DNA of 64,000 nt from a phage: assembly GCA_036253495.1 (NCBI GenBank), contig GCA_036253495.1_4125.1; one strand, 5' to 3'. Position 1 is the stretch's first letter. Each line of letters begins with the position of its first letter. A program made the translations under genes and the position numbers. The notes below the pieces were generated by a model. It worked only from the letters and a program-made list of their open reading frames with translations. It made no database searches and had not been told where the DNA came from. Below are positions 19,978 through 24,599 of this stretch, one piece after another.

Positions 19978-22125
19978 ATGTTAAACATTACACGTATAAC
20001 AATGAGGAATTTCTTTTCCTTTGGTAATGCACCACAAGTTATTGATTTAAATGGTGCTGACATATCTTTAGTACTCGGTCAAAACAATGATGCTGTCATT
20101 GAAGGTGGTGATAGTTCTGGTCGTCGTAACGGTGTAGGTAAAAGTGCAATTATTCAAGGTCTTGTTTTTGGACTATTTGGAAAAAGTATTGGTAACGATA
20201 TTAAAATTCCAAACTTAGTTAATAAAACAAATGCTAAAAATTGTGAAGTTACCGTTGAGTTCGAGAAAGACGGTATACAATACCTTGTTGAGCGTGGGCG
20301 TAGTCCCACATATTTCAATTTCATCACTCTAGGTCAGGACAATAAAGTTCTCGATGAATCAAGAGGTGAAAAGAAAGATACACAAGAAGATCTAAATGAA
20401 ATTCTAGGAATCTCTCAATTACTTTTTGAGCACATTGTAGTACTGAATGCTAACGTTGAACCTTTCCTTGCTCTTTCTTCACAGAAACAACGTGATATGA
20501 TTGAAGAGCTATTAGGTATTACCCAATTAACAGAGAAAGCTGAACTGTTAAAGGATATGAACAAAGAGTCAAAACGTTTAGCTGACCAAGAGAAGTTTAA
20601 AATTGAAACAGTTGCAGCAAGTAATGAACGCATTCAACGCAGCATTGAAACCTTACAGGAACAGGCTAATAAGTTTGAAATTGATAAGGCTAATAGAGTG
20701 CAAAAACTAAAAAGTGAATTGGAAGTATACAGTACTTTTGTATTTTCTGATTTATATGCTGCTGCTGAAGAGAAAGAAGAAGCACTTCTACACATCTCTA
20801 AACGTTTACAACTCGAACGTAGAGTTCAAGAACTTGCAGTGAAATATGATCAGTACGATAGAGAACTAGCCACTAATAAAAATATTATTCAGCATAGTAT
20901 CGATAAATTAAAAACTATTGATATTGAATCTGAATTAAAAAACCATGAAGAAATGGAACTGTGGAAACAACTAGAATCTATCTTAAAAGATAATCAGTTG
21001 CAAAAGAATTTCAAAACACAGAAACTAAATTCACTAAATCTTTCGTTGAATGCTCATATTAAATCTCTTACAGCAGAAGAAGAGAAATTAAAATCAGTTG
21101 AGGATAGTAAATGTCCACTTTGTTTATCAGAGTTGGAGCATAATGAGCATGGTAATGGTATAAAAGATAAGATTAATGATACTATTCGTCTAATCAGAGA
21201 AAATATAAGTAAGGTTGAGTTGGAAATTGCAACACTATCAGATGAAATCAATGCAATTGAGATATTTGATATGCCCCCTAAACCTGTAACTTTCTATAAT
21301 ACCCTTACCGAAGCCCAAATGCATGACCATAAGCTACAAGAACTTATTAAAAAGAGTGAGGAAGAACAAATTAACATCTACCGTGATGAACTAATGTCTT
21401 CTTATGAGGCTCTTGATGCATTAGAAGTAAAGGAAGTTCCAGATGCGTTGAATAAATCAGAAGTTAAAGAGTTAGAAATGACTTTTAACTCACTTACTCA
21501 ACAACTTGAACGCGAAATGAACACAACTAATACGTTTATTAGTCAGATTAATACTTTAACAACCGATTCGTTGGTTCCTATTGATTATACTGACTTCAAT
21601 AACCTTGAAAAATTGGCTAATCACCAAGATTTCTTAGTTAAACTATTGCTCAATAAGGATAGTTATGTTCGTAAACGTATCATTGAACAAAATATCTCAT
21701 ATTTGAACTCCAGATTGCAGTACTATATTGATATGTGTGGTTCAGAACACAATGTGGTCTTCTTGAATGACCTTAGTGTTGAGATTGAGAAGAGTGGACA
21801 GTACTTTGACTATAAACAATTGAGTCGTGGAGAACGAACACGTGTTAATATTGCATTATCATGTGCTTTCCGCGATACTTATGAATCATTATATCAAAGT
21901 ATTAATATTCTTATCATAGATGAGATGATAGATCAGGGTCTTGATTCAAGTGGTGTTCTAAGAGTATGGTCAATCTTCCAGGATATGGCTGCTGTACGTG
22001 GTAAAAACGTATATGCAATATCTCACAGAGAAGAATTACTATCTAAAACAGAAAAAATCCTTAAAGTGGTAAAAGAAGACGGTTTCAGTACTGTTGAATA
22101 TGCTACTCTTGATGATATTTTCTAA
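19978..22125 (+). CDS. 46: Rad50/SbcC-like ATPase (T4 gp46-like)
   Basis: N-terminal Walker A (GRRNGVGKS), long coiled-coil middle, C-terminal signature/Walker B region (LSRGERTRVNIAL...LIIDE). Confidence 0.85.
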   Translation: MLNITRITMRNFFSFGNAPQVIDLNGADISLVLGQNNDAVIEGGDSSGRRNGVGKSAIIQGLVFGLFGKSIGNDIKIPNLVNKTNAKNCEVTVEFEKDGIQYLVERGRSPTYFNFITLGQDNKVLDESRGEKKDTQEDLNEILGISQLLFEHIVVLNANVEPFLALSSQKQRDMIEELLGITQLTEKAELLKDMNKESKRLADQEKFKIETVAASNERIQRSIETLQEQANKFEIDKANRVQKLKSELEVYSTFVFSDLYAAAEEKEEALLHISKRLQLERRVQELAVKYDQYDRELATNKNIIQHSIDKLKTIDIESELKNHEEMELWKQLESILKDNQLQKNFKTQKLNSLNLSLNAHIKSLTAEEEKLKSVEDSKCPLCLSELEHNEHGNGIKDKINDTIRLIRENISKVELEIATLSDEINAIEIFDMPPKPVTFYNTLTEAQMHDHKLQELIKKSEEEQINIYRDELMSSYEALDALEVKEVPDALNKSEVKELEMTFNSLTQQLEREMNTTNTFISQINTLTTDSLVPIDYTDFNNLEKLANHQDFLVKLLLNKDSYVRKRIIEQNISYLNSRLQYYIDMCGSEHNVVFLNDLSVEIEKSGQYFDYKQLSRGERTRVNIALSCAFRDTYESLYQSINILIIDEMIDQGLDSSGVLRVWSIFQDMAAVRGKNVYAISHREELLSKTEKILKVVKEDGFSTVEYATLDDIF

Positions 22126-22137
22126 TATAATGAATAA

Positions 22138-22161
22138 AGGGAGCCTTAGCTCCCTTTTTTT
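22138..22161 (+). terminator. rho-independent terminator after gp46-like gene
   Basis: AGGGAGC-CTTA-GCTCCCT hairpin followed by TTTTTTT. Confidence 0.6.
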
Positions 22162-22637
22162 ATATCTAACATGTTTAATTTGCCGTCCTTAATAAGCTTC
22201 CTAGCCTGTTTTACACGAGCAGTAGTGTTGCTACAAGGGACAACTCCTAACCCTTCCAGAATCGCGTTTTGCTGCGTTGCTGGGAGCCTTTTAAACTTAT
22301 TAACATCCACAGTTAATGCCGTGTGATGAATCACTTGCTCTTCTGGTGGAATATTATTGTTCTTTTCAAGATAATCTGCCAGATTTCTTAGTACTTCATG
22401 AAGAGGTTTATCAGTTAAATGACGCAAGTATCGATTGAAAGAGTTCTGCACCTTACCTTCCCATGCGTTAACCTCATTTTGTAGAACTTCTCTACAATGC
22501 TGGTTTTCGAAGTGATAGTGGTCGAGTACTGGTTTCTTAATCGGTTCCTTGATTATAGGATCAATACCTTTTTGCTTTTTTAATAATTCATTTCTGTACG
22601 TAGCAGCTTCCTTACTATCTTTAAGTCTTCGTTTCAT
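22146..22637 (-). CDS. Endonuclease VII-like (His-Me finger) protein lacking the canonical Zn-ligand cysteines
   Basis: 163 aa; LDHYHFEN and NAWEGKVQNSFNR align with T4 Endo VII LDHDHELN and NAAEGQMKHKFNR; only one Cys present. Confidence 0.45.
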   Translation of the reverse strand: MKRRLKDSKEAATYRNELLKKQKGIDPIIKEPIKKPVLDHYHFENQHCREVLQNEVNAWEGKVQNSFNRYLRHLTDKPLHEVLRNLADYLEKNNNIPPEEQVIHHTALTVDVNKFKRLPATQQNAILEGLGVVPCSNTTARVKQARKLIKDGKLNMLDIKKGS

Positions 22638-22731
22638 AATGTGCCTTAGATCTAAGTTAGTTTATGAAATATTTATGAAATACATTCCTAAGAAATTTTT
22701 AAGTACTTTTTTATAAAAAAGATTAGATATT

Positions 22732-22761
22732 TTGAGACACTTTTAAATTGCGTGCTATAAT
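22732..22761 (+). promoter_or_regulatory. strong sigma70-type promoter (TTGAGA-18 nt-TGcTATAAT) firing into ORF-free region
   Basis: -35 TTGAGA at 22732-22737, extended -10 TGCTATAAT at 22753-22761. Confidence 0.6.
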
Positions 22762-22766
22762 GTTTC

Positions 22767-23246
22767 ATGTAGTACTGACAATCCTGTTGAATGCAGAAAT
22801 GCATATAAATTAGAACCTAATCCACTCGAAAATGTAGAGGGTAGATGAGCAGTTCAACAGTGCGATGAGCAAAAGAAACCCGTTAGATGTGGGCATATTA
22901 TGAACCCCTCACGGCGACACGGCTCAATAAAGAACTCCGATAAGCATACAGAGAGTTCCTCGATAGATGTATAAGGATCGCACCTTACCAGATATGCTAA
23001 GGGAGTTTGATGATTCATTTCATTAAACAGCCTGAAGTTTGATTGTATAGACTTTCAGGTGAGTGTCAGGATGTTTAAGACTGACGACCGTTGCACATGA
23101 CTGCGATAGAGAGAAACAGAGCAACCCGCTTTCGTTCTTAATATTTTTTACAATATAATTACGTTTAAATTTTAAGAAATTCGCAATACAATAATACCGA
23201 TGCCATCAGCGTCAAGAAACAGAGACTTAATTGTCTCTTTTTTATT
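22767..23246 (+). ncRNA. candidate non-coding RNA (about 480 nt) between promoter and terminator; identity unknown
   Basis: No ORF longer than about 25 codons with an RBS on either strand; several stem-loops (e.g. CCTGAAGT...ACTTTCAGG, GTCAG...CTGAC); ends at hairpin AGAGAC-TTAATT-GTCTCT plus T-run at 23220-23246. Confidence 0.3.
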
Positions 23247-23473
23247 ATCTTCATTCCCCTGCGGGGGGATGAAATATCCTCAACAAATCCCGTCAAGTAT
23301 TAAATCATTTAAAGTTCTTTATAATTATATTAAAATGAATATGAGTTAACGTAGTTAACGAATATTCTTCAGCTAACGAATGAAATGAGTTAGATGAGTT
23401 CAATATAAATCAAATGAATTCCTTCAAGAATAAATCTTTTAAGATCATAATTTCTTTCATCTACTTTGTAAGT

Positions 23474-23519
23474 AAAAACCCAAAAAAACAAAAACAAAAA
23501 ACCAGCAACAATGTGCTGG
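23474..23519 (-). terminator. rho-independent terminator (minus strand)
   Basis: Minus-strand hairpin CCAGCA-CATTGT-TGCTGG followed by a long T-run (plus-strand A-rich tract 23474-23501). Confidence 0.6.
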
Positions 23520-23532
23520 CTTCTTATGAGTA

Positions 23533-23694
23533 TTAGTGCTTCTCGTTCATCTTCTTTACTTTCTTATTGTATGCCTTAATAAGCATATCTCTGTCATTTA
23601 CTGGCATATTAAGTAGAGTTGCATAATCGACATTATCTACATAAACAGCAGCATCCATAAGGGCATTTTTAATATCTGATTTATTCAACTCCAT
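23533..23694 (-). CDS. small ORF (53 aa) or -1 frameshift extension of the upstream 295-aa protein
   Basis: Frame open from the slippery T TTT TTC site inside the upstream gene to a TAA 14 nt before the terminator; internal ATG at 23694 with weak RBS. Confidence 0.3.
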   Translation of the reverse strand: MELNKSDIKNALMDAAVYVDNVDYATLLNMPVNDRDMLIKAYNKKVKKMNEKH

Positions 23695-23711: not shown

Positions 23712-24599
23712 TTATTTCTTCTGGGTTTGAGAAGAGAAGCTGAGATCGAAAAAATGAGTAGGGTCATACTTTAATCCAGTAAGTTCCCATTGATGCTGAC
23801 ATTCAATACATTCAACTTCCATTGTATGCGATACACCAATCTCTAGTACTTCATCCATTTTCTCTCTGATTTGCTTGATCACTTCTTTTGATTGAGTACC
23901 TAACCATTCACTTATGAATTTCTTATCTGATACTTCATCACCATCAGGAGTAATTACCTTATCAATAACTCCAGCAATCATATCAAAGTTTAGTTGTGCC
24001 ATGTTTTCAAATACTTCAGAAAACATTTTAATTTTATCATCTTCAGAAATATCAATAGTACTTTCAAGATACTTAGTTTTTTGCTGTTCAGCTAACATAC
24101 GTTGAGAAAACTCTGAATATTCTTTCCAAGTAAGTGGTCTGAACTGAAGAGACAAACCATTATTAAGATCAATACTAGGAATTTCAGTAAAAGATTCTGC
24201 CGTTTCCAATAGATAAGAAAGATCACGTTCAAAACGGCCTTCTTTGGAACATGATGGACATACGACATTGACATCATAACTGGTTTCTTTGGATGCTAAC
24301 TTGATAGCAATAAGAATTTGCTCAACATCATTGACAAAAAGCTCATCTGCGTTTAGAATGTTTGGTACACAGTTTTCGATAACAGATGACACTGCACTAC
24401 CATTGAGTAACATATCAGGTGTATTGAGCATCATTTCGTCACGAGCACTACGAGCACAGACACCACATTTAATGCCTTTGCTCCCCAATACACCATCTTT
24501 GTACTGGAAAATGTTGTTAGTGACGAGTTTAGTACTAATTTCTTCGATTTTTGTGTATTTTGCTAACGGGTTCATTGACATAATACTTTCTCCATGCAA
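23712..24599 (-). CDS. hypothetical protein with three CxxC pairs (possible Zn-binding)
   Basis: 295-aa ORF; CGVC, CPSC and CIEC motifs; no recognisable NTPase motif. Confidence 0.6.
   Translation of the reverse strand: MHGESIMSMNPLAKYTKIEEISTKLVTNNIFQYKDGVLGSKGIKCGVCARSARDEMMLNTPDMLLNGSAVSSVIENCVPNILNADELFVNDVEQILIAIKLASKETSYDVNVVCPSCSKEGRFERDLSYLLETAESFTEIPSIDLNNGLSLQFRPLTWKEYSEFSQRMLAEQQKTKYLESTIDISEDDKIKMFSEVFENMAQLNFDMIAGVIDKVITPDGDEVSDKKFISEWLGTQSKEVIKQIREKMDEVLEIGVSHTMEVECIECQHQWELTGLKYDPTHFFDLSFSSQTQKK

Follow-up and report, generated by a model that had tools for sequence, protein, structure and literature searches.

What does a phage keep in a stretch of its genome that carries no annotated gene? 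In the 64,000-nucleotide (nt) window analysed here (the whole of the DNA under study, contig GCA_036253495.1_4125.1 of assembly GCA_036253495.1), the open reading frames (ORFs) leave a gap without coding sequence (CDS) that extends from 22638 to 23532. The region around it (22100–23560) shares 98.6% identity with Escherichia phage A4 (ON286972; 355.5 kb; genus Asteriusvirus), whose annotation is blank across the equivalent of 22638–23532, and 83–84% with 121Q, PBECO4, phAPEC6 and other RaK2-like jumbo phages. The original prediction had placed in this gap a structured non-coding RNA (ncRNA) of about 480 nt in a T4-like setting. The setting holds only loosely, as the phage is an Asteriusvirus, a RaK2-like jumbo phage and not T4-like in the narrow sense. 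The RNA itself is supported by a conserved promoter and terminator, a covarying pseudoknotted fold, the absence of tRNA, tmRNA or Rfam matches and the lack of a conserved ORF. We conclude, with a probability of about 0.95, that 22768–23246 on the plus strand is a functional structured RNA gene. As to its role, we favour a reading in which the folded RNA is the active molecule and works in trans, and put the probability of this at roughly 0.4.

Using sensitive blastn with 22762–23250 as query, we found matches in 72 phage records, all of them RaK2-like jumbo phages (hosts Escherichia, Salmonella, Klebsiella, Erwinia, Serratia, Yersinia, Pectobacterium, Cronobacter and ‘Xanthomonas’). The matches lie at 280 places, typically four to five per genome and mostly unannotated. 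In most of the A4 sequence, four copies were located at about 65.2, 125.8, 205.6 (the copy in the window) and 321.0 kb, all on the plus strand and 70–82% identical to one another. Pattern scans followed by profile searches gave about 60 copies on IMG/VR contigs and 70 loci in metagenomes. From more than 100 copies in total, 69 that are less than 95% identical to one another form the non-redundant set used below.

The fold was derived from these homologues. RNAalifold and the pair count were run on 48 non-redundant copies (alignment A3, MAFFT) and a mutual-information scan on all 69. RNAalifold predicted 66 pairs, 39 of them with compensatory changes; mutual information recovered these pairs and added four long-range helices (PK1–PK4). 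The resulting structure has 92 pairs in 19 helices with four pseudoknots. In it, 89.0% of the cells are paired, versus 38.6–40.9% when partners were slid by 1–3 columns. A column-shuffle control gave 73.0%, and 0 of 500 shuffles were as high as the structure itself. Double changes were found in 677 cells (78–116 in the slid controls), the covariation score was 0.437 (0.06–0.10 in the controls), and 63 of the 92 pairs have changed on both sides. That is, comparison across related phages uncovered compensatory substitutions beyond what relatedness would give, as in a structured functional RNA, and the predicted stem-loops are backed by covariation and not by thermodynamic stability alone. Chance stem-loops are effectively refuted as an explanation, both by these 63 pairs and by four to five conserved copies in each of 72 genomes. 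G-U pairs and one-sided changes from G-C to G-U occur on the plus strand only, and the pseudoknots are kept, which argues for a single-stranded molecule of plus sense and agrees with the direction of the promoter.

In the 5′ domain (22784–22863, on the plus strand like all parts of the RNA), which emerged from mutual-information covariation, the strand CUGUUG (22784–89) forms PK1 with the P3 loop CAACAG (22855–60). P1 (22791–22804) is a hairpin with a GAAA loop. P2 (22818–22843) carries the conserved loop GAAAAUGUA and is 92.8% paired with 7/7 pairs covarying. A conserved AGAUGAG separates P2 from P3 (22849–22863, 100% paired). PK1 is only 66% paired in MAFFT columns because the loop lengths differ; its complementary changes are visible in the alignments (CUGUUG/CAACAG, CUGAUUG/CAAUCAG, CUGCUUG/CAAGCAG and GUGUGG/CCACAC).

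The central domain (22866–22987), like the 3′ domain, is supported by the covariation count. P4 (22866–70/22922–26, 99.1% paired, 3 covarying pairs) encloses P5 (22880–83/22911–14, 97.9% paired), and PK2 joins ACA at 22917–19 to UGU at 22968–70 (97.8% paired, 2 covarying). The hairpins P6 (22932–37/22953–58) and P7 (22972–76/22983–87) are 94% and 83.8% paired, respectively, with 5/5 pairs of P6 covarying. On its 3′ side the domain is followed by the conserved CUAAGGGAG (22997–23005). Immediately 3′ of P6, A4 copy 3 (L001:3330-3360) has 11 nt duplicated in tandem, GTTCCTCGATA, a duplication absent from the window (22950–22966); it is either a real junction polymorphism or an assembly artefact.

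The 3′ domain (23031–23192) opens with P9 (23031–40/23049–59), whose loop AUUGUA (23042–47) forms PK3 with UACAAU (23187–92; 99.6% paired, 6/6 covarying). P10 (23064–69/23081–86) is 91.7% paired with 5 covarying pairs. PK4 pairs GUUGC (23090–94) with GCAAC (23121–25) in the 15-nt loop of P12 and is 100% paired (3 covarying). P11 (23102–06/23181–85) encloses P12 (23109–13/23129–33) and P13 (23136–38/23175–77). Both P11 and P12 are 100% paired with 4 covarying pairs each, and P13 is 98.6% paired with 3/3 covarying. In the alignments an optional peripheral module of about 30 nt, of the UACAAUAUAGAUCCGUCCAAAAUUU type, is inserted in P13 in the window copy (23144–23176); other copies have it in the P8 region near 23005–23030, in both places or in neither. 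It behaves like a swappable peripheral tertiary element.

Transcription signals frame the fold. The pattern scan placed the promoter on the plus strand exactly where it had been predicted (22732–22761): TTGAGA (22732–37), an 18-nt spacer and an extended −10 element, TGcTATAAT (TG 22753–54, TATAAT 22756–61). With a pattern score of 11/12 plus the TG, it is a predicted sigma-70-type extended −10 promoter, with transcription expected to start at about 22767–22769. Taken as a class, promoter-like matches are about as frequent in the region as expected (14 versus 13.1), and the window promoter is credible because it is conserved: a −10 element of the TGnTATAAT/TATACT type lies upstream of all 67 non-redundant homologues for which upstream sequence is available, most of them also with a −35-like TGGGACA, TGAAACG or TGGAAC. 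Promoters of this type are the second class of promoter described in phage CBB (PMC5259590). In one group of copies the −10 box sits 10–20 nt ahead of the conserved 5′ strand. In some paralogue types a terminator-like hairpin and a run of 6–10 U separate the −10 box from the conserved RNA (L004:15070-15128, which is A4 copy 1, and many other loci including L034, L037 and L052), suggesting an attenuated or 5′-protected transcript.

At the other end, the intrinsic terminator was likewise found at its predicted place (23221–23246, plus strand): a stem of AGAGAC and GUCUCU (23221–26/23233–38) around the loop UUAAUU, followed by the U-run UUUUUUAUU (23239–46). Terminator-like sites exceed expectation in the pattern scan (6 found, 1.3 expected), and a hairpin with a U-tail occupies the same spot in 40 of the 69 homologues, with about 20 different stem sequences, that is, as covarying equivalents. 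From predicted start to the end of the U-run, the short form of the transcript measures about 480 nt (22768–23246, plus strand); the conserved core runs from about 22780 to 23216, and nhmmer profile matches span 22779–23316.

A terminator directly after the core in these 40 copies would also suit a cis-acting transcription element at the head of long units, which decides whether polymerase reads through that terminator into the downstream genes. Such an element might act as a processive antiterminator, resembling HK022 put or EAR but of far greater size, or as a leader that senses a ligand or factor. In one subfamily the repeat R1 (AUCAGCGUCAAG; 23205–23216 on the plus strand of the window, just ahead of the terminator) itself forms the 5′ arm of the terminator (GUCAG...CUGAC U8), a classic switch layout. 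The hairpins with U-runs between promoter and RNA body in some paralogues point the same way, as do A4 copies 1, 2 and 4, which lie upstream of long plus-strand gene runs, and a copy in an Escherichia coli island that precedes co-directional genes. However, the copies in the window, in Serratia and in Silvania face convergent genes, where read-through would yield antisense RNA only, and in the window a second, bidirectional terminator follows at 23494–23527. The size and complexity of the RNA are beyond any known antiterminator RNA or riboswitch, and no Rfam match to such families was found. We therefore consider a cis element unlikely.

Neither known RNA families nor proteins account for the region. 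At gathering thresholds, Rfam 15 gave no match anywhere in the window (RNase P, tmRNA, group I and II introns, 6S, GOLLD, ROOL, OLE, HEARO and riboswitches included), and at E≤10 only terminator-like chance matches far below threshold appeared in 22500–23600. ARAGORN detected no tRNA or tmRNA gene in the whole window, in line with the earlier failure to see a tRNA-like T-arm. The segment 22640–23250 had been described as ORF-free, and this is borne out: no ORF exceeds 54 amino acids (aa) on either strand, and none is conserved in position or frame among the 69 homologues. The proposed rise in GC (guanine plus cytosine) content is real against the flanking spacers (38.4% versus 22–29%) but weak against the window mean of 35.7%, as 21% of equal-sized windows are as high.

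A missed small protein gene could draw on ORFs of 31–108 aa (ATG, GTG or TTG starts) that individual copies permit, and on the short ‘hypothetical proteins’ annotated over the region in some records. These ORFs, however, differ between copies in strand, frame, start and end; the only one of at least 45 aa in the window copy, a 54-aa ORF on the minus strand, is not shared by other copies, and the indels in the alignment are not multiples of three. A conserved peptide starting at GGGGGGAUG was ruled out, since its reading frame varies between copies. A coding explanation is therefore effectively refuted as well. The 2–4 short ‘hypothetical proteins’ drawn over the RNA in several other phage records are almost certainly spurious.

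Where the copies lie bears on their history. Across phages they group by type of paralogue, and they keep their positions. A copy of the window type in Salmonella phage 7t3 is also found between endonuclease VII and the baseplate hub, and another type follows a sigma-factor gene in both A4 and RaK2. The paralogues are thus ancient and not recently mobile. In A4 the copies sit between substantive annotated genes, and the 125.8-kb copy overlaps a small hypothetical CDS on the opposite strand. Neither blastn (word size 7) nor nhmmer revealed a second copy inside the window. No match was obtained in plasmids, and among GenBank phage records only jumbo phages matched, with none from non-jumbo (temperate) phages.

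Islands or prophages of a few Enterobacterales also harbour full-length copies, complete with the promoter, terminator and 3′ block seen in the phages. In Serratia fonticola (L139:61-4191) the RNA, a large serine recombinase and a pair of ParB/RepB-like genes form a cluster adjoining host rof (duplicated) and tilS; this cluster may be a very small integrative element, with its left boundary outside the 8-kb locus. In Silvania hatchlandensis and Serratia sp. 2723 a recombinase precedes the RNA, followed in Silvania by a convergent CI-like repressor. An Enterobacteriaceae metagenome-assembled genome has host thiM, the RNA and a convergent CI-like repressor. Two of the 5426 complete E. coli genomes carry the RNA. 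In one of these two, E. coli LR-29-1, a full-length copy (L141:8999-9596; chromosome 3479–3480 kb; 419 bits) lies within a 1.4-kb stretch without annotation, in an island between ffs and ybaA. The same island holds an IS3-disrupted integrase, a DUF4326-DUF488-DuOB gene trio and a resolvase, and a triple TATCGATCG repeat lies about 700 nt downstream of the RNA.

Serine or tyrosine recombinases beside the bacterial copies, which lie at island or prophage edges, together with the multiple copies, HNH endonuclease genes near two of the A4 copies and the likeness of R1 and R2, its second copy downstream, to a short target duplication, might indicate an element that works chiefly at the DNA level, as a recombination or mobility site or as the remnant of a mobile element. 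Against this stand the ancient paralogues, syntenic across genera, the tolerance of G-U on one strand only with maintained pseudoknots, a promoter pointing into the copies (67/67) and a constant difference between the two repeats that marks them as inherited (see below). We regard this explanation as highly improbable. DNA-only, coding and chance explanations are in sum essentially excluded.

Conservation does not stop at the terminator: the unit reaches about 23297 and, with more hairpins included, about 23393. Every full-length copy contains a 3′ block (23250–23297, plus strand) made of a pyrimidine/G hairpin, GGGGGG followed by AUGAAA, and the motif CAAAUCYCGUCAR. In the window the hairpin is CCCC/GGGG (23256–59/23264–67; helix 18), which is 99% paired with one-sided changes only: its C-side varies only from C to U against an invariant G-run. 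The GGGGGG at 23263–68 is near-invariant, and the motif ends in R2 (AUCCCGUCAAG, 23287–97, plus strand). R1 and R2 form a direct repeat of 11–12 nt that brackets the terminator and the G-run hairpin, and they change in concert. At positions 23206/23288, 43 copies have U/U and 26 have C/C, with no discordant copy, and a neighbour-joining tree requires about six independent switches between these states. The rare variants UGUCA, CGACA and CUUCA are found in both repeats of the same copy. R1 always has one extra A relative to R2, which indicates that the repeat was inherited and not re-created by independent insertions.

What could couple the two repeats? Within the RNA we found no exact complement of R1/R2, and with G-U allowed at most 7 of the 69 copies match at any one position. 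Covariation of the same base in parallel register is not a product of base pairing; it is expected of sites that are read as the same sequence, by re-alignment, translocation or twin recognition. Two hairpins were considered as the cause. S1:R1 is register-ambiguous and 35% paired in MAFFT columns owing to length variation, and is unproven. S2:R2 is invariant in its pairing in the main family and lost in a divergent subfamily, where R is CGAAG and S2 stays GAUG. We do not claim a four-segment S1/R1/S2/R2 switch. The divergent subfamily (metagenomic jumbo-phage-like contigs L083, L088, L093, L112, L114, L122, L123 and L134) has ACC(A)ACGAAG as R1/R2; it retains the 3′ domain and the G-run, and its 5′ half is much changed. 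A co-varying direct repeat is an uncommon evolutionary constraint and calls for a mechanism.

Behind R2 follow conserved hairpins capped by C(GNA)G; in the window these are GAAUAU..GUUAAC-GUA-GUUAAC..AUAUUC (23337–67, plus strand) and CUAAC-GAAUGAAAUGA-GUUAG (23373–93, plus strand). Over 67 copies, the 200 nt that follow R2 contain 55 hairpins with C(GNA)G triloops or GAAYGNARUGA loops, versus 1.5 in shuffles (about 35-fold enrichment). In many copies one of them overlaps a TTGACA motif, and in some it makes up a full sigma-70 promoter whose spacer is palindromic. Mini-hairpins of the C(GNA)G kind have a much higher stability in DNA than in RNA and are known from the phage G4 origin, RSF1010 ssiA and the N4 virion-polymerase promoters (PMC13037366). 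The downstream hairpins are of a type usually met in initiation signals of single-stranded DNA and in N4 promoters.

These features suggest an alternative in which each copy would be one of several replication origins of a 350-kb genome of the T4 superfamily. A promoter-driven, structured pre-primer RNA would form a persistent RNA-DNA hybrid (R-loop) downstream, nucleated by the G-run; the primer 3′ end, made at R1, would re-anneal at R2, a translocation formally like that between DR1 and DR2 of hepadnaviruses; and, on the displaced strand, the C(GNA)G mini-hairpins would act as signals for single-strand initiation or helicase-primase loading. T4 initiates replication at several origins by means of R-loops made from promoters (oriF, oriG), and RNA II of ColE1 starts its hybrid with a G-run. 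The four to five dispersed, co-oriented and position-conserved copies per genome would fit this model, as would a constitutive host-type promoter for each copy, the near-invariant GGGGGG after the core and the enrichment of DNA-stable hairpins just downstream. The concerted change of R1 and R2 in the absence of an internal complement is the pattern of template/primer re-alignment sites. By tentative extension, the loci might also be protein-independent origins for small integrative elements: the RNA is present in such elements, and in S. fonticola it lies beside the serine recombinase and the two ParB/RepB-like genes, where the 8-kb locus shows no recognisable Rep gene.

However, in 58% of the copies a terminator stands between the core and the supposed hybrid zone (40/69; absent in 29/69), and a fold with four pseudoknots, kept across genera, goes far beyond what any known primer RNA needs. 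Cumulative GC skew in A4 has its only local minimum (about 199 kb) near copy 3, but at a strand switch; as the skew follows gene orientation, this origin test is uninformative. The origin-primer model explains more of the odd features than a trans-acting RNA does, and conflicts with the terminator and the elaborate fold. We regard it, and its extension to integrative elements alike, as possible from the sequence features without being probable.

The trans-acting structured RNA remains our preferred reading. Here host RNA polymerase would make the RNA from infection onwards, with PK1 locking the 5′ end into the fold and the terminator fixing the 3′ end. Conserved nucleotides left unpaired at the junctions would make up a core for binding or catalysis, which would bind, sequester or act on a host or phage macromolecule, and the diverged paralogues would be specialised versions. 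A discrete product is suggested by the conserved promoter class close to the 5′ pseudoknot strand and by a terminator that is kept with different stems. Moreover, the next genes are often convergent (in islands, prophages and the window), leaving nothing downstream to regulate, as expected of a stand-alone gene. A core that constitutes a new class of large ribozyme would be an alternative as novel as a replication origin. Our literature searches for this RNA found no publication describing it and Rfam holds no match, and on these grounds we rate it a new RNA class.

Several observations weigh against a trans-acting product. The 3′ block, the co-varying repeat and the hairpins beyond the terminator are left unexplained by an RNA that ends at the terminator, and in the 29 of 69 copies without a terminator the RNA would run into the 3′ block. 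Diverged paralogues at conserved positions are at least as compatible with a role tied to the locus (cis) as with one in dosage or in trans. No conserved partner protein lies adjacent to the RNA in both the islands and phage A4, an unlinked DUF4326 protein being all they have in common. The minimum free energy z-scores against shuffles are modest and alike on both strands (−2.2 for plus, −2.5 for minus); at only about two standard deviations better than shuffles, thermodynamics alone is not decisive. Finally, we found no transcript data for these phages in the literature.

In the window, the gap is bordered on the left by an endonuclease VII-like ORF on the minus strand (22146–22637; labelled DNA endonuclease VII in A4), preceded by a gp46/SbcC-like ORF on the plus strand (19978–22125). 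On the right follow a 53-aa ORF (23533–23694) and, beyond it, the baseplate-hub gene (23712–24599), both on the minus strand. The bidirectional terminator at 23494–23527 has a 14-bp stem with U-runs on both strands and marks the end of the convergent units; its Rfam matches (STnc30, Thr_leader) are weak and at the level of chance. The locus-tag numbering of the A4 record restarts (A4_591 to A4_1) exactly within the RNA gap, and annotators have therefore placed the conventional genome start there.

RNAs of such size and complexity are rare in bacteria and phages, and every earlier class (RNase P, group I and II introns, tmRNA, OLE, GOLLD, ROOL) has proved biologically or structurally instructive. 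The present RNA is carried by all members of a clade of therapeutic-candidate jumbo phages (of E. coli, Klebsiella, Salmonella, Erwinia and other hosts), is kept as four to five diverged paralogues that are routinely left blank or mis-annotated as ‘hypothetical proteins’, and has moved between lytic phages and bacterial islands. It offers a testable handle on a new host-takeover or anti-defence RNA, or on how replication starts in 350-kb phage genomes.

How does it compare with known systems? HK022 put (about 70 nt) and EAR (about 120 nt) comprise about two hairpins each. Like the new RNA, they are folded RNAs between promoter and terminators, act in cis, and can occur more than once per phage genome (putL, putR); in contrast, the new RNA has about 450 nt and four pseudoknots, and several of its copies face convergent genes. 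RNA II of ColE1, which must fold for function, and the T4 oriF and oriG transcripts share with it a promoter-driven RNA of several hundred nt and a G-run implicated in the hybrid, and the T4 superfamily has several origins per genome just as the new RNA has several copies. Known primer RNAs, however, are not deeply conserved multi-pseudoknot folds and have no intrinsic terminator before the origin.

Among ribozymes, CAGAUGAG followed by a hairpin starting with G-C and then CGA resembles the CUGAUGA, stem II and GAA of the hammerhead, and R1/R2 contain GUC followed by A. But the equivalents of U4, A6, A13 and A14 vary among copies (AGUUGAG; CGAU, CGCA, CGUU) where the hammerhead core is invariant, and there is no Rfam match, so a hammerhead was rejected. 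An RNase P-like resemblance was likewise discarded, as the similar blocks are in the wrong order, core positions vary and Rfam gives no match. PA5oct, a RaK2-related jumbo phage, has four ncRNAs defined by RNA sequencing, of 236–619 nt, unannotated, ORF-free, highly transcribed and all on the plus strand (PMC7318152). Neither ncRNA001 nor ncRNA002, the two that were searched, is a homologue: the profile hidden Markov model found nothing in that region at E=10 with filters off (ncRNA003 and ncRNA004 lay outside this test).

In kind, the new RNA is closest to GOLLD and ROOL, large ‘ornate’ ncRNAs of phages and prophages whose function is unsettled (PMC12286853). Like these it is large (they measure about 500–800 nt), folds intricately with pseudoknots, is borne by phages and prophages, was recognised by covariation and has its own transcription signals. 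It is unrelated to them by sequence or structure, matching no Rfam 15 model, and it differs in organisation: GOLLD and ROOL are usually single-copy and adjoin tRNA genes, whereas the RNA described here is not linked to tRNA genes, exists as four to five diverged paralogues, and is followed by a conserved post-terminator block with a co-varying direct repeat.

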